Virus record (IMG/VR): IMGVR_UViG_3300045988_051752
DNA length: 42,218 nt
Reading direction: 5' to 3' (one strand)
Source: a virus
In this document: piece after piece, positions 1-42,218 of the stretch
Layout of the letters: the number at the start of each line of letters is the position of its first letter
How positions within the stretch are numbered: position 1 is the first letter of the stretch
Notes under the pieces: model-generated
Told to the model about the DNA's origin: nothing
The model's input: only the letters and a program-made list of their open reading frames with translations
The model's database searches: none
Made by a program: the position numbers and the translations under genes

Positions 1-75
1 AAGCAAGGCCGGTAGAATTGACAGCGGAAGATTTACAAGAACCGCAGATTGACGCACAGGCAAAAGAAAAAAAAG
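1..75. repeat. Terminal direct repeat, copy A (identical to 42144-42218)
   Basis: Base-by-base comparison: aagcaaggccggtagaattgacagcggaagatttacaagaaccgcagattgacgcacaggcaaaagaaaaaaaag occurs at both ends. Confidence 0.97.
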
Positions 76-3000
76 CGGTGCAGGAAAATGTACGCCAAAG
101 AGAAAAAGTACCGGAAACGGGCGCACAGCGAAGCGTAGAAGGGGTAAATTACAAAGGACTACAGGGAGATATCGAAGGAATAGACCGGGTAGAGAACGGA
201 AAGATTTATGCACGGGTAAACACAGGGGATGCAACAATCGTACAGCCGGTAAGCAACTTAAACTTCGACAATGCTGTCACGCAGGCGCTCTACCAGACAG
301 CAGAAGGATACAAAGATGCCGGAGCAAGAAATTTCGTGATGGAGTACAACGGAGAAAGCCTGATAGCGTACAAAAAAGGATTCAATGCGTATTACGATGC
401 AGCAACTGTAGGAATCCCGATGGGGAAAGTAAACAGCGTATACGGAAACATGCTTACAGAAAAACAAAAAGCAGCGGCGTATGCAGCTGGAGAAACAGAT
501 CTTAATTTCGAACAAAGGCATGAAAACTTAAAAGTGGCGCGTGAGACCAAAACAGCAGGATCGCAGGTGCTGGAAAACGACGCTTTCAGAAGCCTGACGA
601 AGGAAAACCAGACAATATTAAAGGCATATGCAAAGATGTCCGGGGCAAACGTGGTGGTAGACGAGACAATTTCAGCAGGAAACGGACGGTATGCGAACGG
701 CTACTACGACAATAACGGAACGATCCATATTGCAGCGGATGCCACAAGCCCGATAAGCGTAGTGGCAAACCACGAACTGACGCACTACCTGCAGCAATAT
801 TCACCGATTTATGATGAGTACAAGAATGAGGTCATCAACTATCTGATGCAAAAAGAAAACATGCCATTGGACGGTTTGATCGAAAGACATATGTCAAATT
901 ATGAGAATGCAGGCCGCCAGATTTCCAGAGAGGAAGCTATGGACGAAATCGTGGCAAATGCAAGCGAAATGTTCCTGACGGATGAATCAGCAGTACAGCG
1001 GATGGTAAAAGAAAACAGATCCATCGGAGAGAAAGTGCTGGACTTCTTTAAAGAATTTATTTCGAACTTGAAGAAAATGCTCGAAGGATACGAACCGAAG
1101 AGCAAAGAAGCACAGATGCTGAATGAAGACTTGGAAATGGCACGAAAAACAGAAAAGATCTGGCTGGAAGCCATGCAGGATGCGAAGCGAACGGGGGGAG
1201 GAGATGCGAGCATAGAAAATGTAAATGTAGCAGTAGCGAATGACGGAAGTGCATATAGAACATATTCCTTGAAGACATGGAACGAATCGGAGTACGCGAC
1301 GGAGAAGAAAAAGGCAGCAGAGGAGCTGGCAGAAGCGATCGGAGTAACGAAAAGAACAGCAACCGAATATATCAACAACATAAATAGCATCGCGGCAATC
1401 ATCGCGGAAGACAAGGAGAGGCTTGACTATAAGGCGTCGCCATACGGGAGCGCGTGGAAGTCGAACGCTGAATACGGAGGGTCGATAGACATGTCGACGC
1501 TGTGCCCGAAAAGAAGAATGTATACAGGGACGGTAGCAGAGATACAGAAGGCGATGCCGAACACGGCTCTGACAGCAGAAGACTATGTAAGCATAAGGTC
1601 AATGATGATGGAGAAAGGATACGAGGTGGCTTGCGGATTCTGCTATGTAGAATCATCAAGAAAAGACATAGGAAAATACACGGGGGAATTTCTGGAACAA
1701 TATAAAAAGGATCACCCAGAAAGCAATTACACACAAGTGGACTTCAACACACCAGAAGGCCTGGAAAAAGTACAGGAGTCAGACAAGGGGGCATACGACA
1801 AGTATCTGGAATTCATGAACAGGCTCGCGCAAAGAAAACCGAAATTATTTGAAAACAGGACAGAGTACAGACATGAGATACTGGATGCATTTAAGAGAAA
1901 GGAGACAATAGAAAAGAAAAACAAAAACGGGGGAGTTAGGTTACAAAGCTTCTCGGATTTTGAAACGCCACATTTGATAGATATGATGCAGGTGATCATC
2001 GACATGTCGAGGGTAGGGCTTGGAGGACAAGCATACACAAAAATGCCGAACTTCGCATGGGCGCTCGGAGATACCGGATTAAAGATAAACCTATCATTGG
2101 TAGGAAATGTGGATGAAAAAGGAAACCTAACGTTTGATGATGTGGAGGGCATGCCGATAGATGAGGCAATGAAACTGAGGAAACGGTATTCAAAAAACGT
2201 AGGAACGATCCTTGTGGGAGTGAGTGACGAACACATACTGGCAGCAATGAAAGATGATAGGATAGACTTCATCATACCGTTTCACAGAAGCCAATGGAAC
2301 AAAAGCCTATACTCTGCGCTGGGGATAGATGGGTACAAAGATTACACAAAGCTGCAGAATGAAAGCTACATCGAAGAAAGACGAAACAAAAACGGGAAAA
2401 AGATGCGTCCAAGCAATTTTATGCCAAACGAATACTGGGATTATTCAAAAACCGGGAAACAGAATGCGGAAAAATACTTAGAAATGTGTGCAGAGGATGG
2501 AAGAATTCCGAAATTCAGCAATTTTCTTAAATACAATGAAGACGGAACGTGGTCACTGAAAGAAGACGGAAGCACAGATGGATATTGGAAATTGCTGGGA
2601 GATTTCAAGATGTACGACAACGAAGGAAAGGGATCACCGCAGAAACCGGTAAAGCCGAAATTTAACATGGATGAATGCGAAAGGATACTGAACGAATACG
2701 AAGGAGGGCACCAAAGTTTCCCTGTGGCAAAAGATGTCGTAAGAGAATTTCTGGAAGAAAGAAAAGATAAGAAATTCATGATAAAAGAAGACATCAGATA
2801 TCAGATGGAGGATGCCTCCGAAGTAGACTACGATACGCTGAAAGCGGAAAACAAGGACCTGAAAGAATTAAACAGCATATTGGGAGGAATGATAAAGGCA
2901 ACAAAGGGAATAGAACCGGACCAGGATGCGATAAAGAAGGTCGGAAAGAAAATTCTGAAAGACTATAACTCGGATTATAATCTGGATACATTTACAAGAA

Positions 3001-6000
3001 ATATGACCGGTATATGGAAGTATATATCAGGATCCAAAAACATAGACGCAGAGCAGGTGGCAATAGCCACGGCGGACATGGCAAAGGGAATCCTGGAACA
3101 CGCAAAGGTAAATGTAAACGAGAGATACGCAGAGCAGTATAAAGATCTGGCAAAAGAGGTAAGACAGATCAAGCTGGAAGTGCCGGAAGAGATGAGGGGA
3201 GATTTCGACCGGGAAGGAGGATACGCGGAATTCCGAAAGAGAAATTTCGGAACGTTAAAGCTGGGAAAAGAAGGACAGAGCATTGATTCCTACTACCAGT
3301 CCCTGGCAGAAAGATACCCGGAGCTGTTTGACGAAACTATATACACCAACCCTGCGGATCGGCTCATGCACATAGCGGAAGTGATGGAAAGTATAAAGCC
3401 GAAGTATGAAAATGCATTTGGAATGGATCTTGATGAAGCAGCAGCGGATCTGGCGCATGAAATCTATCAGTCGTATTTTGATATTGCAGCAGGAAAAGGC
3501 TCTATTGATTCGATCAGAAAGAATGTGATAGAAAAAGAGCGGTTGAAATACAAGAAATACAGGGAGAAAATGCGGGATGATTACAAAAAGTACAGGGAAG
3601 AGTACAGAGGGAATTTTGCGCAGAGAAGAAAGGAGAACTTTGAAAAGAAAGCCTATTCGAAAAACATCGAACAGACAGCAAACAGATTAAGCAGATGGCT
3701 TTTGAATCCGACGAACACCAACAGCGTACCGGAGAGTTTAAGGGGGCCGGTGGCTGAATTCTTAAATTCCATCAATTTAAGCAGTAAGGACGTGAATGTG
3801 TACGGAAATCCCACGCAGAGAACGCTTAAATGGCAGGCTCTATCAAGGGCATATGAGAATATCATCAAAGCGCAGGACAAGTCGGAATACACGGGACAAT
3901 TCATAGACCTGGATCCGGATCTGGTAAACATGCTGAATGATCTGACGGAAAAGAATAAAGAGGTAATGCTTGCAGATATGACTGTGCAGGACATGAAGGA
4001 ATTGAACCGGCTGATAATGGCTGTGAAAAAATCCATCGAAAGCACGAACACATTACTTGCAACAGAGAACTACAAGAGAGTGTCAGATCTGGGAGAGAAG
4101 TTCCTGGAAGAAAACGAGAAAAAAGAAAGTGCAAAGGAAAGTGTATACGGAACCGTAAATACAGCAAGAAACTTCATGAAGCTGGATATGTTGGATTCAA
4201 GGACGTATTTCAATTCACTGGGAAAAGCAGGAATGGATATATACGGGGCATTGAGAAGCGGACTGGACAAAAAAACGAGAAATATCAAAATTGCGCACGA
4301 CTACATAAAAAATCTGATAGGAGAAACAGATATATCAGAGTGGTCGGGAGACAAGGCGAAGCTGCACGAATTCGAAACCGAGGGAAGGGAAGAGTTAAAA
4401 CTCACAACAGCACAAGTCATGAGCCTGTACAGATTGCTACAGAGAGACCAGGCAAAGAAACACATTCTGGAAGGAGGAATAAGGCCGGAAAAAACCATAA
4501 CAAAAGCAGGGAAGCTCAAAAAAGAAGTTACAAGATACTATGAACCGATACGGGTAACCGAAAAAGACCTGCTGAACATCATAGACACACTGACGCCGGA
4601 GCAGAAAAGGATTGCTGATGGAATCACGGATTTCTTCACTTCAACAACATCTGCCTGGGGAAACGAAGTGTCCATGCAGTTGTACGGATACAGGAAATTC
4701 ATGGCAAGAAACTACTTCCCGATCGTTTCGGATAACAGCTTTACGAATTCGGCAAGCGGAGACCAGCAGGGAAACGTACAGACCTTGAAAAACATGGGAA
4801 GTACAAAAGCGACCGTGCCGCATGCAGGAAACCCGATCATATTACAGGATATTTTTGATGTATATGCAAGGCAGTCCGACCAGATGGCAAGCTACAATGC
4901 ATTTGTGGTGCCGCTAACAGACCTGCAGAAGTGGTACAACTACAGAGGAGATCCTACGATAACGAAGTACAAAAAATCTGTAAAACAGACCATAACAAGG
5001 ACAATGGGGCAAAATGGAAGGGCATATCTGGACACCTTGGTGCGGAGAATAAACGGAGTAGCCGAGAAAGAAACGGCAAAACAGATATGGTCAAGCCTGA
5101 CATCGAACATGAAGTCTGCGGCAATCGGAGCGAACTTAAGAGTTGTACTGCAGCAGCCGACGGCGATTGTAAGAGCAGCAACCGTGATCGATGCAAAGTA
5201 CCTGATGAAAGGAATGGCAAAAAAAGCGGACGGAGACCAGATGAAGAAGTACGCACCGATAGCACAGTGGAAAGACTGGGGATATTTCGAAATGGACACC
5301 GGCCGGCAGATGAAGGATGTTATTCTTGGGAAGGAATCGTTGAAAGACAAAGCAATGGCACCGGCAGGAATGGCCGATGACTTCACATGGGGGAAAATCT
5401 GGAATGCGGTATTGTATGAAACGAAGGATAAAACGGACTTAAAACCGGGATCGGAAGAATTCTATCAGGCAGCAGGAAAGAGATTCTCTGAAATCATCGA
5501 CAGAACACAGGTTGTCGATTCCATCCTGCACAGGTCAAGTGTAATGATCCAGAAGGACAATGCGACAAAAATGGCAACATCCTTTATGTCGGAGCCTATA
5601 AAAACCTACAACATGGTCTACGACACGCTGATGAACACGCCGGGAGGAAAGAAGGAAGTCGCAAAGAGCATGGCAAAGCTGCTGGTGATCCTGACGGTAC
5701 AAAATGCAGTGAACGCACTGGCGCAGACACTGGCGGATGTATGGAGAGATGATGACGATGAAACAGCATGGGTGGATGTAGAAACATGGAAAGATAATTT
5801 CAAAGACAACATGAATCCACTTACATACATTCCGTACTTAAAGGAGATACCTTCGATATGGCAGGGATTTTCGGCAGAAAGGACGGAAATGACGGGTATC
5901 ACGGATTCGGTGCAGGGATTACAGAAATGGATCAAATACTTCCAGGGAGAATCAAAGTATACGGCAGCAGGGCTTGTGAGAGAATCCATGAAACCGATCA

Positions 6001-6938
6001 GTGAGTTGTCGGGAATGCCAATAAACTCCACGCTCAGAGAGTTTGAAAGCCTGGCGGATTTGATTGCATGGAACTATCGCAAGGTAACAGGAAACGAAAC
6101 TGCGAAAGCCGAGTATGAGATCAAAAAGACATTTTACAGAGCAGGAAGTCCGAAGAACAGAAATATGTTCATCGGACTTTACGGAAGAGCAAGGGAAGAG
6201 GGGGATTACAAAACAGCAGCAGCCATCTATAACGATCTGCAAAAAGCCGGGAACACCAAAGAAAGGCTTGACAATGCGTATAAGAAATGGAAGAAGAAAA
6301 GGGATGAGGGACTGCTGGAAGCAGATGAAGGCTTGCAGAAGGAAATAACAGAGGCATACAAAAACAACGACATGGAAACATTCAAATCCGCATCGGAAGA
6401 ATTGAAGAGCAAGGGTATAGACATTAACACCGCGCTGGATCAGATTGAAGACGAGGAAAAAGAGGAAGAGGAATACGAAGTGTCGGAAGTAACGCCGGAA
6501 GACCTGCAGAAGGAAGATAACACAGCAGAACTATACACCTTGCTTTACATGGCGACCCAAAACAATGATACACAGGCGCAGAACACATACAAAAAGCAGC
6601 TGAAAGAAGCTGGGGAAAAAGAGGAGGACTTCCAGAAAAACCTTTTAAAAGAGCAAAATGCCAAGGCTAAGGCAACAGGGGGAACGGAGTATAGCTACGA
6701 TGCACTGTTCAATGCTCTGGTATCCACAGAAGGGAAAAACGGCAAAAAGTATAAGGAAATAGAACAGGGGCTGAAAAAATACGGAAAAGACGATTCCACA
6801 ATAAAAAAATCCATGAAGTCCAGATTAAAAACAGCATATATGAACAGCAGAGGAAACGACAGGCTCACGAAAAAATATTCCGATTTGCTGAGAAGCTTCG
6901 GAGTGGACACACAAACGATTAAAGGATGGCTGGAATAA
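1..6938 (+). CDS. Giant multidomain protein, 3' part (stop TAA 6936-6938); combined ORF is 9,069 nt = 3,022 aa
   Basis: The frame is open from the first base. The track starts it at an internal TTG (18) only because the window begins there. It contains an HExxH motif (HELTH, 771-785), a Cys cluster (CPKRR...ACGFCYVE, from about 1503), and a long K/E-rich C-terminal tail. Coding-strand purine bias produces many spurious antisense ORFs. Confidence 0.85.
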   Translation, partial: ARPVELTAEDLQEPQIDAQAKEKKAVQENVRQREKVPETGAQRSVEGVNYKGLQGDIEGIDRVENGKIYARVNTGDATIVQPVSNLNFDNAVTQALYQTAEGYKDAGARNFVMEYNGESLIAYKKGFNAYYDAATVGIPMGKVNSVYGNMLTEKQKAAAYAAGETDLNFEQRHENLKVARETKTAGSQVLENDAFRSLTKENQTILKAYAKMSGANVVVDETISAGNGRYANGYYDNNGTIHIAADATSPISVVANHELTHYLQQYSPIYDEYKNEVINYLMQKENMPLDGLIERHMSNYENAGRQISREEAMDEIVANASEMFLTDESAVQRMVKENRSIGEKVLDFFKEFISNLKKMLEGYEPKSKEAQMLNEDLEMARKTEKIWLEAMQDAKRTGGGDASIENVNVAVANDGSAYRTYSLKTWNESEYATEKKKAAEELAEAIGVTKRTATEYINNINSIAAIIAEDKERLDYKASPYGSAWKSNAEYGGSIDMSTLCPKRRMYTGTVAEIQKAMPNTALTAEDYVSIRSMMMEKGYEVACGFCYVESSRKDIGKYTGEFLEQYKKDHPESNYTQVDFNTPEGLEKVQESDKGAYDKYLEFMNRLAQRKPKLFENRTEYRHEILDAFKRKETIEKKNKNGGVRLQSFSDFETPHLIDMMQVIIDMSRVGLGGQAYTKMPNFAWALGDTGLKINLSLVGNVDEKGNLTFDDVEGMPIDEAMKLRKRYSKNVGTILVGVSDEHILAAMKDDRIDFIIPFHRSQWNKSLYSALGIDGYKDYTKLQNESYIEERRNKNGKKMRPSNFMPNEYWDYSKTGKQNAEKYLEMCAEDGRIPKFSNFLKYNEDGTWSLKEDGSTDGYWKLLGDFKMYDNEGKGSPQKPVKPKFNMDECERILNEYEGGHQSFPVAKDVVREFLEERKDKKFMIKEDIRYQMEDASEVDYDTLKAENKDLKELNSILGGMIKATKGIEPDQDAIKKVGKKILKDYNSDYNLDTFTRNMTGIWKYISGSKNIDAEQVAIATADMAKGILEHAKVNVNERYAEQYKDLAKEVRQIKLEVPEEMRGDFDREGGYAEFRKRNFGTLKLGKEGQSIDSYYQSLAERYPELFDETIYTNPADRLMHIAEVMESIKPKYENAFGMDLDEAAADLAHEIYQSYFDIAAGKGSIDSIRKNVIEKERLKYKKYREKMRDDYKKYREEYRGNFAQRRKENFEKKAYSKNIEQTANRLSRWLLNPTNTNSVPESLRGPVAEFLNSINLSSKDVNVYGNPTQRTLKWQALSRAYENIIKAQDKSEYTGQFIDLDPDLVNMLNDLTEKNKEVMLADMTVQDMKELNRLIMAVKKSIESTNTLLATENYKRVSDLGEKFLEENEKKESAKESVYGTVNTARNFMKLDMLDSRTYFNSLGKAGMDIYGALRSGLDKKTRNIKIAHDYIKNLIGETDISEWSGDKAKLHEFETEGREELKLTTAQVMSLYRLLQRDQAKKHILEGGIRPEKTITKAGKLKKEVTRYYEPIRVTEKDLLNIIDTLTPEQKRIADGITDFFTSTTSAWGNEVSMQLYGYRKFMARNYFPIVSDNSFTNSASGDQQGNVQTLKNMGSTKATVPHAGNPIILQDIFDVYARQSDQMASYNAFVVPLTDLQKWYNYRGDPTITKYKKSVKQTITRTMGQNGRAYLDTLVRRINGVAEKETAKQIWSSLTSNMKSAAIGANLRVVLQQPTAIVRAATVIDAKYLMKGMAKKADGDQMKKYAPIAQWKDWGYFEMDTGRQMKDVILGKESLKDKAMAPAGMADDFTWGKIWNAVLYETKDKTDLKPGSEEFYQAAGKRFSEIIDRTQVVDSILHRSSVMIQKDNATKMATSFMSEPIKTYNMVYDTLMNTPGGKKEVAKSMAKLLVILTVQNAVNALAQTLADVWRDDDDETAWVDVETWKDNFKDNMNPLTYIPYLKEIPSIWQGFSAERTEMTGITDSVQGLQKWIKYFQGESKYTAAGLVRESMKPISELSGMPINSTLREFESLADLIAWNYRKVTGNETAKAEYEIKKTFYRAGSPKNRNMFIGLYGRAREEGDYKTAAAIYNDLQKAGNTKERLDNAYKKWKKKRDEGLLEADEGLQKEITEAYKNNDMETFKSASEELKSKGIDINTALDQIEDEEKEEEEYEVSEVTPEDLQKEDNTAELYTLLYMATQNNDTQAQNTYKKQLKEAGEKEEDFQKNLLKEQNAKAKATGGTEYSYDALFNALVSTEGKNGKKYKEIEQGLKKYGKDDSTIKKSMKSRLKTAYMNSRGNDRLTKKYSDLLRSFGVDTQTIKGWLE
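771..785 (+). other. HExxH (HELTH) zincin-type metallopeptidase motif inside the giant ORF
   Basis: Sequence context is IHIAADATSPISVVANHELTHYLQQYSP. This is the classic zinc-binding HExxH pattern preceded by a hydrophobic strand. Assignment to the polyvalent-protein metallopeptidase family is from memory, not a search. Confidence 0.5.
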
Positions 6939-18300: not shown

Positions 18301-18448
18301 GAAGGGAAGAGATACAAAACCGGAAGATTGCACACATCCTGATTGCTTCCACTGTCCGTATCATGATTGCATATGGGATGGAAGGCTGGGGTACGACCCG
18401 ATAAAACGGAGAGCGGAATCGAATCAAAAAGAGAGGGAGAGGAAATGA
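18293..18448 (+). CDS. Cys/His-rich micro-protein, 51 aa (MPKKGRDTKPEDCTHPDCFHCPYHDCIWDG...)
   Basis: ATG at 18293 overlaps the upstream stop, and its TGA (18446-18448) overlaps the next ATG (ATGA). Below the track cutoff. Found by manual translation. Confidence 0.45.
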   Translation: MPKKGRDTKPEDCTHPDCFHCPYHDCIWDGRLGYDPIKRRAESNQKERERK

Positions 18449-18735
18449 AAATCTACATCAGCGGCCCAATGGCGGGAATAGAAGGATATGAAAAGAATTT
18501 TAAAACTGCGGAAGTGAAAATGAAGGAATCCGGACATGAAGTCGTGAATCCGGCAGAAATTGACGGGGAAGGAATGACGAGGGAAGAGCTTCTCAAACTC
18601 GACCTGTGGATGATGGAAGAGTGCGATGCGATCTACATGTTAAAAGGATGGCAGCGGTCCTGCGGAGCAAACCGGGAATATGGGTTTGCCTTGGGGCGCG
18701 GCATGGAAATCTTTCACGAGGGTGTGTCGGAATGA
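18445..18735 (+). CDS. DUF4406 / nucleoside 2-deoxyribosyltransferase-like protein, 96 aa
   Basis: MKIYISGPMAGIEGYEKNF...VVNPAE...ECDAIYMLKGWQRSCGANREYGFA matches the DUF4406 pattern from memory. Confidence 0.6.
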   Translation: MKIYISGPMAGIEGYEKNFKTAEVKMKESGHEVVNPAEIDGEGMTREELLKLDLWMMEECDAIYMLKGWQRSCGANREYGFALGRGMEIFHEGVSE

Positions 18736-19417
18736 AAATATTGATAGCGTGCGAAGAGAGCCAGACGGTATGCAAGGCTTTCCGGGAAAAAGGACATGAA
18801 GCATACTCCTGCGACGTTCAGAAGCCGTCCGGTGGGCGCCCGGAATGGCACATACTCGGAGATGCGCTGAAAGCCATCCAGGGGGGGGGATTGTAGAAAC
18901 CATGGACGGAGCTACACACGAGATTGGACAGTGGGACATGCTGATAGCACATCCACCTTGCACATATTTAACAGCGGCAAGTGCAATTCGGCTCTTCAAC
19001 CCGGATCATTCCATAAAAGATCCAGAAAGAGAGCGGAAGGGATGGCGGGCAAAGGAGTTTTTTCTGAAAATTCTGAATTCAGAAGTAGGGAAAATTGCCG
19101 TAGAAAATCCGGTACCGCTGAAACGATTTGAATTGCCTGCATACAGCCAGATTATAGAACCGTATATGTTTGGGGATCCGTGGAAAAAACGAACTTGCCT
19201 GTGGATAAAAGGGATGCAAAATCTCAAACCGACAAACATAGTGGAGCCGCTGGGGCTTTGGGTAGGGGCCGCGTCCGGGAGGAAAAACGGAACTGGACGG
19301 GTAAAAAGCGGTTACATCCTAAAGAGCAACCGCGATCAGAAGACTAGATCAAAGACATTTCCTGGGATTGCGCAGGCAATGGCAGAGCAGTGGGGAGAAA
19401 CAAAAGATGACAAATAG
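18732..19417 (+). pseudogene. DNA (cytosine-5) methyltransferase-like gene split by a frameshift in a G9 tract (intact length would be 228 aa)
   Basis: The N-terminal part (MKILIACEESQTVCKAFREKGHEAYSCD...KAIQGGGL*) stops at 18896. The -1 frame continues GGGIVETMDG...DMLIAHPPCTYL...IAVENP...TCLWIKG to 19417. One extra G (G10) fuses the two parts. Confidence 0.7.
18881..18889. repeat. G9 homopolymer at the frameshift point
   Basis: ccaGGGGGGGGGatt. Zero-frame codons are CAG GGG GGG GGA TTG TAG. Confidence 0.95.
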
Positions 19418-19748
19418 AGAAATGCTTCGCCGGGCACAGCTGGCAAAGCTTACGAAACAGATCATAGACAGCCCTGAATACAGGGAGCGCAGAAAAGAAG
19501 ATGACGAGCAAAACCTCATGAGAGCATTTGCAAGCTTTGCATTGATAAGTGCAGATTATCTTTATCGGCAATTTAACTGCAAGGCAGCAGGAATCAGAAA
19601 ATTTATTGATTTTGTAAAGCCGAGCATGGGATATGTAAAGGATGATCCGGATTATTTTAGGCTGATGAATGAGGCATTTGTGGACGAGATAGGGTTGGAT
19701 ATTATGAAAGAGCTGGGAATGGAGTTTGAAGATGAAGACGAAATGTGA
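19407..19748 (+). CDS. Hypothetical protein, 113 aa
   Basis: ATG at 19407 after GGGGAG, overlapping the upstream gene end. Confidence 0.6.
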   Translation: MTNREMLRRAQLAKLTKQIIDSPEYRERRKEDDEQNLMRAFASFALISADYLYRQFNCKAAGIRKFIDFVKPSMGYVKDDPDYFRLMNEAFVDEIGLDIMKELGMEFEDEDEM

Positions 19749-20586
19749 AATTTACAGAGATTCGATGCAGAACTATAAAAAGTACGGCATTAGGCCTGCG
19801 CAGCTGATCATCGCAGATGTCCCGTATAACGTTGGTAACAACTTCTATGGAAGCAATCCGATGTGGTACAACGGCGGCGACAATAAAAACGGTGAAAGCA
19901 AATTAGCCGGGAAAGCGGCATTTAACAGTGACTTCAATTTCAATCTTTATGAATATTTCCATTTCTGTTCAAAGATGTTGAAAAAGGAAGATACAAAACC
20001 CACACGCCGCGGCAAAAGCAGCGACAGCCCATGCATGATTGTATTTTGCTCCTTTGAGCAAATACATACGCTGATACAGGCGGCGAAGAAACATGGATTC
20101 GTGAATTACATTCCACTGGTGTTCATCAAGAATTACAGTCCACAGGTGTTGAAAGCCAATATGAGAGTTGTGGGAGCTACGGAATATGCGTTGCTTTTAT
20201 ATCGCGGAAGGCTCCCGAAGTTCCGGAACGGGGTACAGTTTGACGAAAACGGTAAAACCATCAGAGGGACGGGACACATGGTTTTCAACTGGTTCCAGTG
20301 GGAGAAAGACGGGAAAGACATCCCGAAGATTCACCCGGCGCAAAAGCCTGTTGCAGTGCTGAAAAAGCTGATTGAGACATTCACCGATCCCGGCGATGTC
20401 GTGATCGATCCGTGCTGTGGATCTGGATCAACACTTCGGGCAGCGGCGGAGCTAGGAAGGAATGCCTATGGATTTGAAATTGACCGCACGTTTTACGACC
20501 GGGCAAAAAATGAAATGATGAAATTCGAAAAGGACGAACAGATGAGTATTGAAGATTTTATGAAAAAACGAGGAGGAAAGAAATGA
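19732..20586 (+). CDS. DNA methyltransferase, N6-adenine/N4-cytosine family (beta class)
   Basis: Motif IV LIIADVPYNVG precedes HPAQKPVAVLKKLI and motif I VIDPCCGSGSTLRAAAELGRNAYGFEID. Confidence 0.9.
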   Translation: MKTKCEIYRDSMQNYKKYGIRPAQLIIADVPYNVGNNFYGSNPMWYNGGDNKNGESKLAGKAAFNSDFNFNLYEYFHFCSKMLKKEDTKPTRRGKSSDSPCMIVFCSFEQIHTLIQAAKKHGFVNYIPLVFIKNYSPQVLKANMRVVGATEYALLLYRGRLPKFRNGVQFDENGKTIRGTGHMVFNWFQWEKDGKDIPKIHPAQKPVAVLKKLIETFTDPGDVVIDPCCGSGSTLRAAAELGRNAYGFEIDRTFYDRAKNEMMKFEKDEQMSIEDFMKKRGGKK

Positions 20587-20846
20587 ACAATAACGAATGC
20601 TGCAAAGTGGAAGCAGAACCAAGAAAGTCTATTGCAAGATACGAGCAGGAAATGATGGACTGCCTGATGGAAGCAAGGGATACATTGAGGTCTATCTACA
20701 TGACGATCACAGGAAATAAAAATGGAGAAGATGAGGATAGAGAAGAACCGGAAAGTTTGTTACGAAATGTATTAATAAACAGGGAACTGGCGATGCAAAT
20801 AAGAGGGATGTCAAAAACAATCAACGAAGAGCTATTCGGGGAGTGA
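20583..20846 (+). CDS. Hypothetical protein, 87 aa
   Basis: ATGA overlap with the methylase stop. RBS GGAGGAAAG. Confidence 0.6.
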   Translation: MNNNECCKVEAEPRKSIARYEQEMMDCLMEARDTLRSIYMTITGNKNGEDEDREEPESLLRNVLINRELAMQIRGMSKTINEELFGE

Positions 20847-20850
20847 AAAA

Positions 20851-21734
20851 ATGGATATCGAAAAAGAAAAACGGGCAATACAATACCTCCGGTCATTCGA
20901 ACCGGAGGAAGAGCCTTATTATTTGTGCTATTCCGGCGGGAAAGACAGCGACGCCATCAGGATTCTTGCACAGCTGGCGGGGGTGAAGCACGAATGCAAA
21001 CATAATCTGACAACTGTGGATGCTCCGGAGACCGTGCGATACGTCCGGGAGACGATCGGGAAGGAAAACATCAACTACCCGAAAGAATCCATGTGGCAGC
21101 TGATCGTGAGAAAGAGGATGCCGCCGACCGGAATTGCACGATATTGCTGCGAAGTACTGAAAGAACGCGGAGGAGAAGGACGGCTCAAGATCACGGGTGT
21201 TAGGTGGGATGAAAGCAGAAAAAGAAAAGAGAATGCTGGAATCGTAAGAGTTATCGGCAAAGAAAAGACGATGCAAAAGAAGCTAAAGGATGACGAGGTA
21301 AATTTTCAGTCAACGCCTATGGGGGGGTGGTATTAAGTACAGACAACGCAAAAGAAAGGAGATTTGTAGAGTATTGCTACCGTACAACAAACACGACGAT
21401 AAACCCGATCGTGGACTGGACGGACAGGGATGTGTGGGAATTTTTACACCATTACGGCTGTGAATCAAATCCACTTTATCAATGCGGATTTGATAGGATT
21501 GGGTGCATCGGCTGCCCGTTAGCTGGCGGAAAACAAATGAAAGCCGAGCTTGCAAGGTATCCAAAGTATAAAGAGGCTTACATAAGGGCATTTGACCGGA
21601 TGCTGGAGAAGAGAAAAGCGGACGGATTACCGACAAAGTGGATCAACGGCGAGCAAGTCATGCGCTGGTGGGTTGGAGATGATCCGAACCAGATAACAAT
21701 AGACGATTATCTAAAAATGACAGGAGGGATATGA
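20851..21734 (+). pseudogene. PAPS-reductase/PP-loop family gene split by a frameshift in a G7 tract (intact length would be 294 aa)
   Basis: The N-terminal part has the PP-loop YYLCYSGGKDSDAI and stops at 21336 (...STPMGGWY*). The -1 frame continues VVLSTDNAKERRFVEYCY...NPLYQCGFDRIGCIGCPLA to 21734. One extra G (G8) fuses them. Confidence 0.75.
21321..21327. repeat. G7 homopolymer at the frameshift point
   Basis: tatGGGGGGGtgg. Zero-frame codons are ATG GGG GGG TGG TAT TAA. Confidence 0.95.
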
Positions 21735-21988
21735 TGGCGAAAAAGATCGTAGATTACATAGGTTATCCTGCCATGCTAGAGCAGCTGGCAGAGGAATGTG
21801 CAGAACTCGGAAAAGCTGCGCTGAAACTGGCCAGGATAGTCAGAAAAGAAAATCCGACACCGGTGACAAAAGAAGAAGCACTGGAAAATCTAAGAGAAGA
21901 GTATACAGATGTCGTACAGTGCGCCAGGGAGTTGGCACTGACAACAGATTTTGTGACGATGACAGCAAAGAAAGAACGATTTTTTTGA
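21731..21988 (+). CDS. MazG-like nucleotide pyrophosphohydrolase-like protein, 85 aa (start at 21731 or 21734)
   Basis: EQLAEECAELGKA ... LREEYTDVV fits the EExxE...ExxD pattern. RBS AGGAGGG. Confidence 0.45.
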   Translation: MMAKKIVDYIGYPAMLEQLAEECAELGKAALKLARIVRKENPTPVTKEEALENLREEYTDVVQCARELALTTDFVTMTAKKERFF

Positions 21989-22051
21989 AAGGTGGAAGCA
22001 GCATGTGGCTGACAGATAGGGCAATTCAAATAGTGGAAAGGGGTAACGAAG

Positions 22052-22657
22052 ATGACAATTAGGCCTATTTTGTTTAATGGAGAGATGGTGCGGGCAATTC
22101 TGGACGGGAGGAAGACCTGCACCAGAAGAGCGATAAAACATAATGTTGATGCAATACTGAACAGTCCGTATCACATGGAACACCCAGAAGTGGAGGATGC
22201 ATGGCTTATAAAAAAACTGTGTAGACCTCCATATGAACCGGGAGATATCATGTATGTTCGGGAGGCATGGGGAGAAGGATACGCAGAAGGAACGTATATC
22301 TATAAGGCTGACGATAAGCCTGCAGAGCTTCCGACCTTCAAAAAAACGTCAAAGATACTGTATCACCCATCAATCCACATGCCGAAAGAAGCTGCTCGAA
22401 TCTGGCTGAAGGTTACGGATGTGAGAGTGGAGCGGCTGCAGGATATCACCGATGATGGAGCAAAAGCAGAGGGTGCAAACTGGAAGAATGGCAAAAACGT
22501 TGGCTGGGAAGAAAAAATGAGACGGACAGCAGTAGAACGATTTGCCGAAATCTGGGATTCCACCATCAAGAAATATGATCTTGACCGTTATGGATGGGTT
22601 GCAAATCCATGGGTGTGGGTCATCGAATTTGAGCGCTGTGAAAAACCAAAAGAATGA
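22052..22657 (+). CDS. ASCH-domain-like protein, 201 aa
   Basis: N-terminal RPILFNGEMVRAILDGRKTCTRR and later GDIMYVREAW are typical of phage ASCH-like proteins. Confidence 0.55.
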   Translation: MTIRPILFNGEMVRAILDGRKTCTRRAIKHNVDAILNSPYHMEHPEVEDAWLIKKLCRPPYEPGDIMYVREAWGEGYAEGTYIYKADDKPAELPTFKKTSKILYHPSIHMPKEAARIWLKVTDVRVERLQDITDDGAKAEGANWKNGKNVGWEEKMRRTAVERFAEIWDSTIKKYDLDRYGWVANPWVWVIEFERCEKPKE

Positions 22658-38784: not shown

Positions 38785-40002
38785 GTGGCGACATATCAGA
38801 TCAAGAAAGGAGATACACTTTCAGGAATTGCGAAGCAGTACGGCGTATCGGTGGGAGATATTGCCTCTGCCAACGGAATCAGCAACCCGAACAAAATAAG
38901 CGCAGGGGCAACACTGACGATCCCTGGGGGTGGCGGGGCAGCGAGCACATCATCAAGCAGTGCATCATATTCTTCTTCATCATCAGGCGGGAGGCCGGCA
39001 TACGCGCCGTCAGACCGAACAAATGAAGCTTATGAGAAATATCAGACAGCACAGAACAACAAGCCGAATGCATACCAGGAATCCCAGACACTGGGAGACT
39101 TAAGGAAGCAGTTAGAAGATTTTGAAACAAAGAAACCGGGAGATTATCAGAGTGCATACAAAACGCAGATAGATGATATTCTGGGTCAGATCTTAGGCAA
39201 AGGGGACTTTAACTGGGATCCGAACAAAGACCAACTCTACCAGTCCATGGCAGACCAATACAGGGTAAAAGGAAACAAAGCCATGAGGGATACCATGGGA
39301 AGTGCAGCAGCCATGACGGGAGGGTATGGATCTTCCTACGCGACAACAGCGGGGCAGCAGGCGTATGACGACTACATGCAGCAGTGGGCAGATCGGGCAA
39401 CGGACTACTACAACATGGCCTTACAGCAGTACAACAGCGAAATGAACAATCTAAACAACAAAATGTCAGCACTTCGGACGGCGGATGACACGGACTACGG
39501 AAGATACCGCGACACGGTAAATGACTGGTACACAGACAGAAATTACCTAACAGACAAGGTAAATACCCAGTACGACAACGAATACGGGCAGTACCGGGAT
39601 ACGGTAAGCGATTATTACAATGACCTGGAAGCGGCAAGAGCGCTGTATCAGCAGCTGTACGGGGAGGATTGGGACAAGTACCAGTCAGATCTCAGCCAGT
39701 ACAACACAGACAGAAACTATGATTTTGAAGTAGCACAGGCAGACAGAGAATATCAGCTAGCCCTGAAAAAGCTTGCGGCATCAGGAAGCGGATCATCTAA
39801 AAGCACACCCAAAAAAGGAGAGAAGATTACATACAATGAAGCAATAATGGGGGCAAGCAGAAAAGGGACAAGCAAATCGGCGCAGCTAAACTATGCAAAT
39901 AAATTGCTGGATAATGGAAATGTGTCGGATTCTGATTATACAAAACTTCTAAACCAAATCATAGGAGGATATGCACCGGGATATACAAAGACAAAGAAAT
40001 AA
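38785..40002 (+). CDS. LysM-domain protein with a Ser-rich linker and a Y/D/N/Q-rich repeat domain, 405 aa
   Basis: GTG after GGAGGGA. LysM segment YQIKKGDTLSGIAKQYGVSVGDIASANGISNPNKISAGATLTIPG. Repeated YG.YRDTV.D.Y motif. Confidence 0.8.
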   Translation: MATYQIKKGDTLSGIAKQYGVSVGDIASANGISNPNKISAGATLTIPGGGGAASTSSSSASYSSSSSGGRPAYAPSDRTNEAYEKYQTAQNNKPNAYQESQTLGDLRKQLEDFETKKPGDYQSAYKTQIDDILGQILGKGDFNWDPNKDQLYQSMADQYRVKGNKAMRDTMGSAAAMTGGYGSSYATTAGQQAYDDYMQQWADRATDYYNMALQQYNSEMNNLNNKMSALRTADDTDYGRYRDTVNDWYTDRNYLTDKVNTQYDNEYGQYRDTVSDYYNDLEAARALYQQLYGEDWDKYQSDLSQYNTDRNYDFEVAQADREYQLALKKLAASGSGSSKSTPKKGEKITYNEAIMGASRKGTSKSAQLNYANKLLDNGNVSDSDYTKLLNQIIGGYAPGYTKTKK

Positions 40003-40012
40003 GGAGGAGAAC

Positions 40013-42218
40013 ATGGCATCACAGGCACAGATTAAAGCAAGAGAAAATATTATGAATATTAGAAGAAAACGGGAAGAAGAGGAGAACTCTTCCCGTTTTT
40101 CGTATTCAGAGAATGAAGACCCGATGACAGTGGCAAGAAGAAACATATCCACGATCAGAGGAAAGCAGCTGACGGATAACACAAGCAGATTAGACAGCCT
40201 GAGAAAGTCAGCAGAGGAAAGAAGAATAAGGCAGGAAGCGCTGAATAAATACAAGAGGATCGTAGGAACGGATAATGCGGAAGAAGTAAAGAGAATAAGC
40301 AGTGTAGGACAGGCGTTGGACGAAAGAATACAAAGGTCAATGGGCGTCAAGGGAGACAGGATCGGCTCAGAGAGACTGGAAAGAGCTGTAGCTTTGGATC
40401 GAATGAAAAAAAGCACAGCAGAAAAGAATGCACTTGAAAAAGACACGCAGTATTACAAAAGGCTTCTGACAGATGATTCCCAGATGGATGCAAGCACCAG
40501 AAGACAGGCGCTTGAAAAATTAAAAAGGACCATCATGACAGAACAGATCACCGGGGATTCAAAGACGCTTTCCGACCTTTCCAAAAGCTTCTCAAACGCA
40601 ACCGGAAAGAAGGTATCACAGACAGATGCCTATCAGATGCTGGAAAATGCCCAGGGACAAATCGACCGCGACAAATACGACCAGAAGATGGGAGAAAAGC
40701 GGAAAGAGCTGGAAAAGGTTCTGGATGAAAAGGGATTTGAAACAGCGGCAAAAAAAGGAAGCCAGATTGCACAAAAAAAGACAGTATACAATGCTGATAT
40801 GCTGGCAGGATACCAGAACGAGGACAAATCATACCCTGATATTTTCAAGAACCAGACAGAGTACGAACAGTACCAGGACATGGCAGATACAGAGAAGGAT
40901 GTATTTGATTACTATCTGGCCACAGAAGGAGTACAGAAAGCAAAAGAATACTTAAATACCATAAAGAGGGATATCACAAAGAGACAGAACGAAGCTTACA
41001 CAGAAAAAATGAAGCAGTATGCAACGGAACACCCTGTATTATCATCGGATTCCTCGGTGGCAGCAGGATTTGCAACAGGCCTCGGAGCTTTGGAGACTAT
41101 ACGCCAGAATGCAGAGAACGTCCTGACGGGAAACAATGTGCCGGTAGACATCAATTCAAAACTGTTCAGACCGATAAATGCCCAGAATACAATCAGAAAC
41201 ACTGTGATGGAAAACTTCCGGGGAAGCGAAGATGTAAAAGCACTAAAGAGATTCCTGTATCAGACCGGAATGTCTATGGCAGATTTTGGAACACAGGCGG
41301 CAGCAGGAGCATTAGTGGGAGGATTTGCAGGAGAAGCCGCATCTTTTGCCGGAGCATCTGCAGAGAGGGCGGCACAGATCACAGCAACGATATCGAAGAA
41401 CGCATCACTTCCGATCATGGGAGCAGGAGCAATGTCCCAGACAGTGAAAGAAGTAATCGAGAATGGAGGAACCAACGATCAGGCTATGCAGCTGGGACTG
41501 ATTGCGGGAGCGGCGGAAATGGTAACGGAGAGGCTGGGAATCGACAATCTTTCTAAGTTATCAAGCCAGGGTGTAAATTCTGTAAAGAGGGCAGTACACA
41601 AGATCATCGCAGAAGGTGCGATCCCGGAAGGTCTGGAAGAAGTTGTTTCGGACATCGTAAACAACGTTGCCAACGACGCGATCATGCAGGAAAACTCCGA
41701 TTTTAATCAGGCTGTTGAGCGGTACATGACACCGAATGCAATGACGGGGGAACACATTTCAAGAAGACAGGCAGAAGATCTGGCAATGAAAGACAGAATC
41801 AAGAATATGGCACTTTCATTTGCAGGAGGGGCACTGTCCGGCGGAATCATGGCAGCAGGAGCCTACGGAAGCGGATATGTCGAGGGAGGAAAAACAGGAA
41901 GAGCGCTGAATGAGTACTACGGAATCAGCGACGAAACATTGATAAATGACGCAAAGGCACTGGAAGGAACAAATGCAAAGGAATTAGCAGAATACTACGA
42001 GGGAAAAGGAAAGCTCACAGACAGAAAAAAAGCAGAATTATACAATCAGATTTTAAAGGACACAAAAGGAGAATACACACCATCACCGGAAATCACACAG
42101 AACAAGACGGAAGATACACAGACCGGGGAGGGAATCGCACAGGAAGCAAGGCCGGTAGAATTGACAGCGGAAGATTTACAAGAACCGCAGATTGACGCAC
42201 AGGCAAAAGAAAAAAAAG
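40013..42218 (+). CDS. Giant multidomain (polyvalent-type) virion/ejection protein, 5' part; the ORF leaves the window and continues at 1..6938
   Basis: RBS AAGGAGGAG at 40001-40009, ATG at 40013. My manual translation finds no stop in this frame up to 42218. Its phase matches ORF 18..6938 once the 75-bp overlap is collapsed (42146 corresponds to position 3). It is missing from the ORF track because it has no in-window stop. The N-terminal region is Ala/Gly-rich and hydrophobic (GAGAMSQ..., MALSFAGGALSGGIMAAGAYG). Confidence 0.85.
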   Translation, partial: MASQAQIKARENIMNIRRKREEEENSSRFSYSENEDPMTVARRNISTIRGKQLTDNTSRLDSLRKSAEERRIRQEALNKYKRIVGTDNAEEVKRISSVGQALDERIQRSMGVKGDRIGSERLERAVALDRMKKSTAEKNALEKDTQYYKRLLTDDSQMDASTRRQALEKLKRTIMTEQITGDSKTLSDLSKSFSNATGKKVSQTDAYQMLENAQGQIDRDKYDQKMGEKRKELEKVLDEKGFETAAKKGSQIAQKKTVYNADMLAGYQNEDKSYPDIFKNQTEYEQYQDMADTEKDVFDYYLATEGVQKAKEYLNTIKRDITKRQNEAYTEKMKQYATEHPVLSSDSSVAAGFATGLGALETIRQNAENVLTGNNVPVDINSKLFRPINAQNTIRNTVMENFRGSEDVKALKRFLYQTGMSMADFGTQAAAGALVGGFAGEAASFAGASAERAAQITATISKNASLPIMGAGAMSQTVKEVIENGGTNDQAMQLGLIAGAAEMVTERLGIDNLSKLSSQGVNSVKRAVHKIIAEGAIPEGLEEVVSDIVNNVANDAIMQENSDFNQAVERYMTPNAMTGEHISRRQAEDLAMKDRIKNMALSFAGGALSGGIMAAGAYGSGYVEGGKTGRALNEYYGISDETLINDAKALEGTNAKELAEYYEGKGKLTDRKKAELYNQILKDTKGEYTPSPEITQNKTEDTQTGEGIAQEARPVELTAEDLQEPQIDAQAKEKK
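42144..42218. repeat. Terminal direct repeat, copy B (identical to 1-75)
   Basis: Same 75-mer as bases 1-75. It lies inside an open reading frame, which fits an assembly overlap of a circular molecule better than a physical terminus. Confidence 0.97.

Follow-up and report, generated by a model that had tools for sequence, protein, structure and literature searches.

Length variation of a poly-G tract in a PAPS-reductase-like gene of a temperate gut phage, a candidate contingency locus

Hypermutable polyG tracts are described in Campylobacter phages (Sorensen et al. 2021, Cell Rep 35:109214, as cited in PMC12823448), and phase-variable bacterial DNA methyltransferases, or phasevarions, are encoded, in the accounts of PMC5909438 and PMC3711429, by Mod genes carrying poly-G/C or tetranucleotide repeats. 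Here we analysed a stretch of 42,218 nucleotides from a virus (IMG/VR virus record IMGVR_UViG_3300045988_051752), hereafter called the window, in which a PAPS-reductase-like gene of the PP-loop family is broken at a run of seven Gs (G7). Comparison with related phages suggests that G7 is probably the OFF length of a hypermutable poly-G tract subject to slipped-strand length variation, the window being OFF both at this gene (site 2) and at a methyltransferase-like gene of the same cluster (site 1).

Tract lengths at two broken genes

The frame break in the PAPS-reductase-like gene is made up of the following features (aa, amino acids; dN and dS, nonsynonymous and synonymous divergence):

20851-21336, plus strand: N-terminal fragment of the PAPS-reductase-like PP-loop gene, 161 aa, with SGGKDS at residues 28-33 and an invariant Cys99-Cys100, ending ...STPMGGWY before the stop.
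21321-21327, plus strand: G7 homopolymer, ATG + GGG GGG + G(TG), in the codons of a conserved Met/Lys-Gly-Gly-Val; out-of-frame (OFF) length, G8 being in frame.
21334-21336, plus strand: TAA stop in frame 0, which arises when GTG GTA TTA AGT is read one base off register.
21327-21734, plus strand: C-terminal part of the gene, continued in a -1 frame that is open from position 21294, with Cys176, Cys204 and a CxxC at 219/222; intact, dN/dS 0.04-0.19 against all relatives.

An earlier note on this DNA had described this arrangement, from the PP-loop in the N-terminal part and the G7 run at 21321-21327 to the STPMGGWY end, the C-terminal part in the -1 frame and the repair by G8, and all of it was confirmed by reading the sequence and its open reading frames (ORFs). 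In frame 0 the tract reads ATG GGG GGG TGG TAT TAA, and the addition of one G gives a protein of 294 aa whose residues 25-224 form one uninterrupted match to PF01507 (E=5.9e-19, 69.2 bits for a Pfam gathering cutoff of 22.5). Because this match continues across residue 158, the frame break lies inside a single domain; SGGKDS and Cys99-Cys100 end up on one fragment and Cys219-x-x-Cys222 on the other, both cysteine pairs being invariant.

Homologues of full length, about 294 aa, are plentiful (5,161 matches), the closest reading ...STPMGGVVLSTDN..., identical to the G8 repair, and most orthologues are a single in-frame ORF. The earlier note had allowed for homologues without a G tract and a split unique to this assembly; related phages instead carry intact genes as well as tracts and breaks at the same codon, with lengths of 7, 8, 9 and 10 Gs read in DNA, in branches as distant as about 45% identity. 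In the close clade, uninterrupted tracts occur in five diverged backgrounds with lengths of 7, 7, 7, 8 and 10. G7 alleles are those of the window (= L039 = L040), of relatives L057/L058 and of L061-L064, while G10 was read in L065; the uninterrupted alleles that are in frame have either G8 (L066/L067, L007) or G9 (L009/L070, L068, L072). A distant branch, in which the motif is Arg-Gly-Gly-Val, has CGG GGG GGG G (G9) in frame in three phages that are 41-47% identical to the window protein, and uninterrupted in-frame G8/G9 tracts are retained in branches that are 41-57% identical. The tract phenomenon is family-wide. L038 (G7, out of frame) and L009 (G9, in frame) are 92.3% identical over 3.8 kb, and proteins P0201 and P0204 have identical N-terminal parts that end in KGGWC and KGGGWC, respectively, before the stop, the DNA of P0204 having G10. 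Fully intact close relatives have interrupted tracts, ATG GGT GGG GTG (L003-L006, L046), ATG GGG GGA GTG (L001/L002) or AAG GGG GGC GTG (L059/L060), and GGA GGG is a further interrupted form among close relatives.

Truncation at this codon was also found at the protein level. A search with the 161-aa fragment gave 841 clusters at E<=1e-20, of which 120 were listed, mostly of 158-172 aa, and the 119 that could be retrieved were classified. Among these listed matches, about 56 stop directly after Gly-Gly in the frame that needs a -1 shift (...GGWY, ...GGWC, ...GGWCLT, each before the stop), about 20 have a stop in the other frame after 3-5 glycines (...GGGAE..., or ...GGGGAEHR, ...GGGGS and ...NGGGGGIK before the stop, with implied tracts of about G9, G12 and G14), and 20 read through the site in frame; the search seems biased to query-like lengths, which is to be set against our reading, and these counts show kinds of break, not frequencies. 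Many of the truncated fragments are encoded on long contigs (40-144 kb) and so cannot be explained by contig ends. An INPHARED DNA search for the PAPS-like gene returned no close relative (best match 72% identical), a look-up of P0005 gave no record, and tolerant pattern scans of viral, metagenome and genome collections yielded a handful of loci only. Two pattern scans of genome contigs gave no loci, so that no host can be named from isolate genomes; the sole direct host clue is L045 (6442-6490), a prophage in the Oscillospiraceae metagenome-assembled genome GCA_018223385.1.

The earlier note was also right in seeing a second gene of the cluster broken at a G tract, which proved to be a split methyltransferase-like gene:

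18732-19417, plus strand: methyltransferase-like gene, PHROG 757 (E=1e-51), split into 18732-18896 and 18845-19417.
18881-18889, plus strand: G9 homopolymer in the Gln-Gly-Gly codons of the methyltransferase-like gene; OFF length, relatives having G6, G7 (in frame) or G8.

At this site frame 0 reads ...CAG GGG GGG GGA TTG TAG, and repair to G10 gives 228 aa, to G7 227 aa. The earlier note gave both tracts the same geometry, with a stop three codons downstream; such a spacing holds at 21321, where TAA is the third codon after the G codons, and not at 18881, where the stop is TAG, the second codon after GGA. The site 1 tract is uninterrupted in 9 of 9 close genomes, with G6 in L044, an in-frame G7 in L001, L005, L046 and L058, G8 in L043, L057 and L059/L060, and G9 in the window. 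L057 and L058 share 98.6% identity over 2.5 kb, with one G in this tract as the sole gap (G8 in L057, G7 in L058). Among more distant relatives, L029 has an out-of-frame G8, and L022 (GGA GGG) and L035 (GGC GGT) are in frame. When the two sites are taken together (site 1/site 2), the window and L057 are OFF/OFF, L058 is ON/OFF, L059/L060 are OFF/ON, and L001, L005 and L046 are ON/ON. Because all four combinations occur, the two tracts vary independently. The coordinated switch suggested by the earlier note is thus upheld as regards a hypermutable tract with ON and OFF lengths, and not as regards coordination.

Site 2 displays several features of a phase-variable locus, namely a homopolymer within the reading frame, frame-changing length differences between close genomes, uninterrupted tracts of both ON and OFF length, and a downstream half under selection. 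Only two runs of at least seven Gs are present in the 42-kb window, each at a frame break. In mononucleotide shuffles the number of runs of at least seven Gs averages 3.1, with P=0.85 for two or more, and an excess of G runs over chance is thereby ruled out; the non-random aspect is the coincidence of both tracts with breaks in conserved genes, not the number of tracts. In favour of the tract reading, GGG-GGG makes up 3 of the 65 Gly-Gly codon pairs in the phage ORFs, all three at the two tracts. As GGG represents 25% of Gly codons, about four such pairs would be expected, spread genome-wide, and G runs therefore seem to be avoided elsewhere in the phage genome.

Slippage weighed against decay, recoding and artefact

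On the slippage reading, the poly-G tract would be built from the codons of the conserved Gly-Gly-Val, and slipped-strand mispairing during DNA replication would add or remove Gs. ON lengths would be G8 in the branch of the window and G9 after the Arg CGG codon, both giving the full 294-aa enzyme. G7, G9, G10 and longer tracts would be OFF and leave the 161-aa fragment, which has the PP-loop and the Cys-Cys pair but not the CxxC half, and which is presumably inactive. Interruptions such as GGT GGG would stabilise the ON state, G7 would be a fairly stable OFF allele, and the window would be independently OFF, through its G9, in the neighbouring methyltransferase-like gene. From these comparisons between genomes we infer that switching would be frequent and reversible within a population, that is, phase variation and not recurrent one-way loss; the advantage may lie in a DNA-directed or anti-defence activity that is toggled as hosts and their defences change.

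Several observations weigh against this reading. All fully intact close-clade alleles read in DNA have an interrupted tract. A collection of 15 billion proteins contains neither the exact G8 repairs of the window, L057 and L045 proteins nor either repaired version of the methyltransferase-like protein, and with all of these exact look-ups negative no direct ON twin of the window alleles was found. Moreover, some OFF alleles were not produced by slippage in the tract: L045 lacks the T of a CCT that lies five bases before an interrupted tract, which leaves it in the same -1-needed frame, and this deletion is common to three protein variants (P0123, P0127, P0129); in L066 and L067 the G8 is in frame, and the gene is broken near codon 215 by an A4-to-A3 deletion; and L047-L056 (15 contigs from many samples) are devoid of the whole C-terminal half and of the next gene. 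In P0134 and P0187 a G7 allele seems to have received a second lesion. Such alleles fit recurrent gene loss as well as a switch, and since non-slip lesions and a large deletion occur, the PAPS-like gene is often dispensable. A rough tally of close-clade contigs, biased by allele ascertainment, gives about 44 intact and about 60 broken, most of the latter at the G-rich site. 

Two of these lesions were located precisely. L066 (3490-4140) and L067 (2715-3365) carry the only uninterrupted in-frame G8 of the close clade, and their break comes 170 bp further on, where TAC AAA AGG becomes TAC AAA GGA TAG; this A deletion was found in two samples, one of which is a Hadza gut metagenome. The deletion junction of L047-L056 lies in the G-rich site (e.g. 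L047 4442-4500), the first ~158 codons are kept, and the remnant GGGGAGGTGG is the ribosome-binding site of the ASCH-domain gene.

These lesions, the predominance of interrupted, stabilised tracts among intact close relatives and the lack of an exact G8 revertant of the window allele on record all favour one-way decay, in which the gene would be dispensable in many hosts, the G-rich site merely its most mutable point, and the G7 alleles young pseudogenes heading to deletion, with no reversible switch. We nevertheless consider decay unlikely in view of the downstream half. Among 15 unique alleles aligned over 885 bp, the indels that disrupt the frame all fall in a 9-nt stretch at the G-rich site, the one indel elsewhere being 9 bp long and in frame, and the downstream half of the OFF alleles shows no further stop or frame-breaking indel. 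The alleles are deeply diverged (dS 0.2 to >1), with dN/dS of 0.03-0.19 in both halves, broken pairs included (window versus L057, C-terminal half, 0.07 at dS 0.57; L057 versus L061, 0.06; window versus L045, 0.09). Because the downstream half stays under purifying selection, the frameshifts must be recent and recurrent, or reversible, or else the gene is still decoded; descent of all G7 alleles from one old frameshift was ruled out by the ratio of ~0.07 at this dS and by the lack of secondary lesions. Decay is also at odds with the in-frame G8/G9 tracts kept uninterrupted in the distant branches, with implied tracts of up to ~G14, unexpected under simple decay, and with a site 1 tract that is never interrupted in the nine close genomes. 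Retention of an uninterrupted tract across lineages is mixed: it is seen at site 1 in all these genomes and at site 2 in the three distant G9 phages, but site 2 is interrupted in many close relatives.

The persistence of selection on the downstream half in broken alleles could also be explained by recoding, if G7 alleles still yielded the full enzyme through -1 ribosomal slippage on G GGG GGG or through G addition by RNA polymerase, with a 161-aa and a 294-aa product. A -1 slip on the heptamer would give the MGGVVL of the relatives exactly, G7 and G10 belong to one frame class, and the class that needs a -1 shift dominates among broken alleles, with ~56 against ~20 clusters among the matches listed. 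However, neither the required frameshift nor the slippery heptamer is conserved in the orthologues, many of which are in frame without a slippery run, and the direction of the shift is not uniform, since those ~20 listed clusters are broken in the opposite frame. L038 needs a +1 or -2 correction and not -1, as it has two Gs fewer than its in-frame relative L009, the G6, G8 and G9 alleles of site 1 require different corrections, and the break of L045 lies outside any homopolymer. No unusually stable RNA structure was found downstream of either tract (fold z-scores of 0.11 and -0.33 at site 2, -0.17 and 1.16 at site 1), and productive transcriptional slippage in bacteria generally needs runs of about nine or more, usually of A or T. 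With in-frame relatives whose tract is interrupted, breaks in both frames, different corrections at site 1 and no downstream structure, the recoding signal envisaged in the earlier note is not supported, and we regard it as highly unlikely. A variant in which G7 and G10 alleles are not null, but undergo -1 slippage or RNA-polymerase stuttering at a useful rate, so that tract length would tune the ratio of fragment to enzyme with no on/off switch, is compatible with the ~56:20 excess and with the strong purifying selection downstream of the breaks; it appears very doubtful to us.

Finally, the true genome might have G8 at site 2 and G10 (or G7) at site 1, both mis-called by a low-coverage assembly. 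The ENA contig that matches the window has a coverage of only ~4x, a further point against the slippage reading, and the three records with the exact allele (IMG, ENA and Logan contigs), 100% identical, could all come from a single sample. This ENA SPAdes contig, NODE_337, and a separately built Logan contig from SRR1761702 match the window at 100% identity, and both have G7; two different assemblers therefore concur, but because both contigs may be one sample their agreement rules out an assembler quirk only. Against mis-calling, none of the 24 A7/A8 runs of the window breaks an ORF: each is located in an open frame or at a gene end, and one giant ORF holds nine of them. The same G7 break recurs in other phages, samples and assemblers: it is found uninterrupted in L057 (SRR29133715) and L058 (SRR29134034) with different flanking substitutions, and in the four assemblies L061-L064 with AAG as upstream codon instead. 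Longer tracts are correctly assembled elsewhere as G8 and G9, short-read assemblies having recovered the in-frame G8 in L066/L067, once at similar coverage (the Hadza SPAdes contig NODE_20399, cov 4.07), and in L007, and the in-frame G9 in L009, L068 and L072, and hundreds of fragment clusters are truncated at the same codon. The frame-neutral A7/A8 runs, the recurrence of G7 and the in-frame G8 and G9 leave the systematic under-call of homopolymers considered in the earlier note without support, and an artefact is extremely unlikely.

Protein identity and gene neighbourhood

The repaired protein matches PHROG 424 (E=5e-39), a family routinely annotated as host metabolism (PMC11318856). In 34 homologues, residues S28, G29, G30, K31 and D32 of the PP-loop are invariant and S33 is nearly so. 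True PAPS/APS reductases (CysH) are defined by a C-terminal catalytic Cys in an ECG(L/I)H motif; the repaired protein has neither this CysH-type motif nor any Cys after residue 222, and the NCBIfam cysH/APS-reductase models gave 31-39 bits, far under their cutoffs of 154-254. The CC...CxxC cysteine pattern recalls the Fe-S ligands of APS reductases and DndC. Matches to BrxP (E=3.7e-11 over 78 residues) and DndC (E=1e-3) are weak and partial. In sequence searches of the PDB, the PP-loop protein had only short PAPS-reductase matches (best E=3e-4) and the methyltransferase-like protein had no meaningful match. An AlphaFold prediction based on 34 close homologues was of poor quality (predicted local distance difference test, pLDDT, 66.7; predicted template modelling score, pTM, 0.52).

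Besides the two broken genes, the module comprises:

18445-18735, plus strand: DUF4406 / nucleoside 2-deoxyribosyltransferase-like gene, at the start of the module.
19726-20586, plus strand: N6/N4 DNA methyltransferase (PF01555), intact, between the two broken genes.
20583-20846, plus strand: 87-aa ORF that matches no family; it immediately precedes the PAPS-like gene both in the window and in all close relatives examined, where it has 85-89 aa.
21731-22657, plus strand: two genes that follow the PAPS-like gene, one for a MazG-like NTP pyrophosphohydrolase (21731-21988), the other for an ASCH-domain protein (22052-22657).

The 87-aa ORF and the PAPS-like gene may be functional partners. C5 methyltransferases as well as Tad4 and Apyc1-like genes are found in this module in relatives. 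The genes for Tad4 (anti-Thoeris) and for the Apyc1-like metallo-beta-lactamase (anti-Pycsar) are located a few genes upstream (L047 1396-1743; L045 1946-2689; L058 756-1496). Their presence upstream of the module in relatives suggests that the early region as a whole is an anti-defence island whose cargo varies. From the gene context it is a reasonable inference that the PP-loop protein may have a role in DNA modification or anti-defence, which makes the label of DNA-modification gene in the earlier note plausible.

The window is a circular phage contig with a 75-bp terminal direct repeat, and its twin L039 has terminase, portal and capsid genes and a serine recombinase. An open frame of ~3,038 codons, roughly a fifth of the genome, runs across the circular junction (39965-42218 + 1-6938); prophages of Clostridium clostridioforme have similar unusually large (8 kb) ORFs, which were likened to polyvalent proteins (PMC11318856). 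The sole T7 run of the window (21980-21986) overlaps the stop of the MazG-like gene (CGA TTT TTT TGA) and breaks no frame. In L007, two copies of CCGGGGGGTGGTAAAGA, 24 bp apart and each with a G6, are found at 1718-1747, ~2.3 kb upstream of the start of the PAPS-like gene.

Implications and comparison with known systems

If the tracts switch, temperate phages of gut Clostridia would carry their own contingency loci in early-expressed genes, a form of viral bet-hedging, and the trade-off might oppose protection from restriction to vulnerability to modification-dependent defences or to the cost of the activity. PHROG 424 is usually annotated as a sulfur-metabolism auxiliary gene; its on/off control by phages, if true, would argue for a role in phage-host conflict. 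Hundreds of public protein clusters are halves of one gene family, so that annotation pipelines which treat them as distinct genes or as pseudogenes misstate gene content, and the tract offers a natural marker for phage subpopulations in metagenomic time series.

The contingency-locus mechanism is itself known and classical, and the only phage precedent found is that of the receptor-binding genes of Campylobacter phages. In the literature covered, which is incomplete and amounts to absence of evidence only, polyG switching is described neither for phage PAPS-reductase-like or methyltransferase genes nor for temperate phages of gut Clostridia.

As regards the protein, DndC and BrxP (BREX type 4) resemble the PP-loop protein by their PF01507 fold, SGGKDS PP-loop and CC...CxxC cysteines, and by the location of their genes among DNA methyltransferases. 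The phage protein differs from them in that its matches are weak and partial and in being much shorter (294 aa against profile lengths of 468-779), and no Dnd or BREX partner gene was seen among its neighbours. As regards the break, the locus shares with programmed -1 frameshifting (dnaX, IS elements, the G/GT tail chaperone of phages) an X XXY YYZ heptamer, here G GGG GGG, a nearby stop in frame 0 and a continuing -1 frame. Unlike in those systems, frameshifting at this site is not a conserved trait of the orthologues, the breaks fall into both frame classes, and no stimulatory RNA structure lies 5-9 nt downstream.

The likeness to phasevarions lies in a slipped-strand repeat inside a DNA-modification gene and in a tract length that varies between close strains, which in phasevarions leads to stochastic ON/OFF expression. 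Whereas phasevarions are built on the chromosomal restriction-modification genes of pathogenic hosts, the tracts described here are phage-borne, one of the two genes is not a methyltransferase, and no effect on a regulon is implied. As far as the cited account goes, the polyG tracts of Campylobacter phages are comparable in being coding, phage-borne and of variable length, in putting the gene in or out of frame and, in those phages, in defining subpopulations. Reportedly, they are located in receptor-binding genes of lytic phages whose host itself uses polyG switching, and their switching was shown by experiment. In contrast, the tracts of the window affect a PAPS-reductase-like enzyme and a methyltransferase-like protein in an early module of a temperate phage of gut Clostridia, where switching is suggested by comparison between genomes only.

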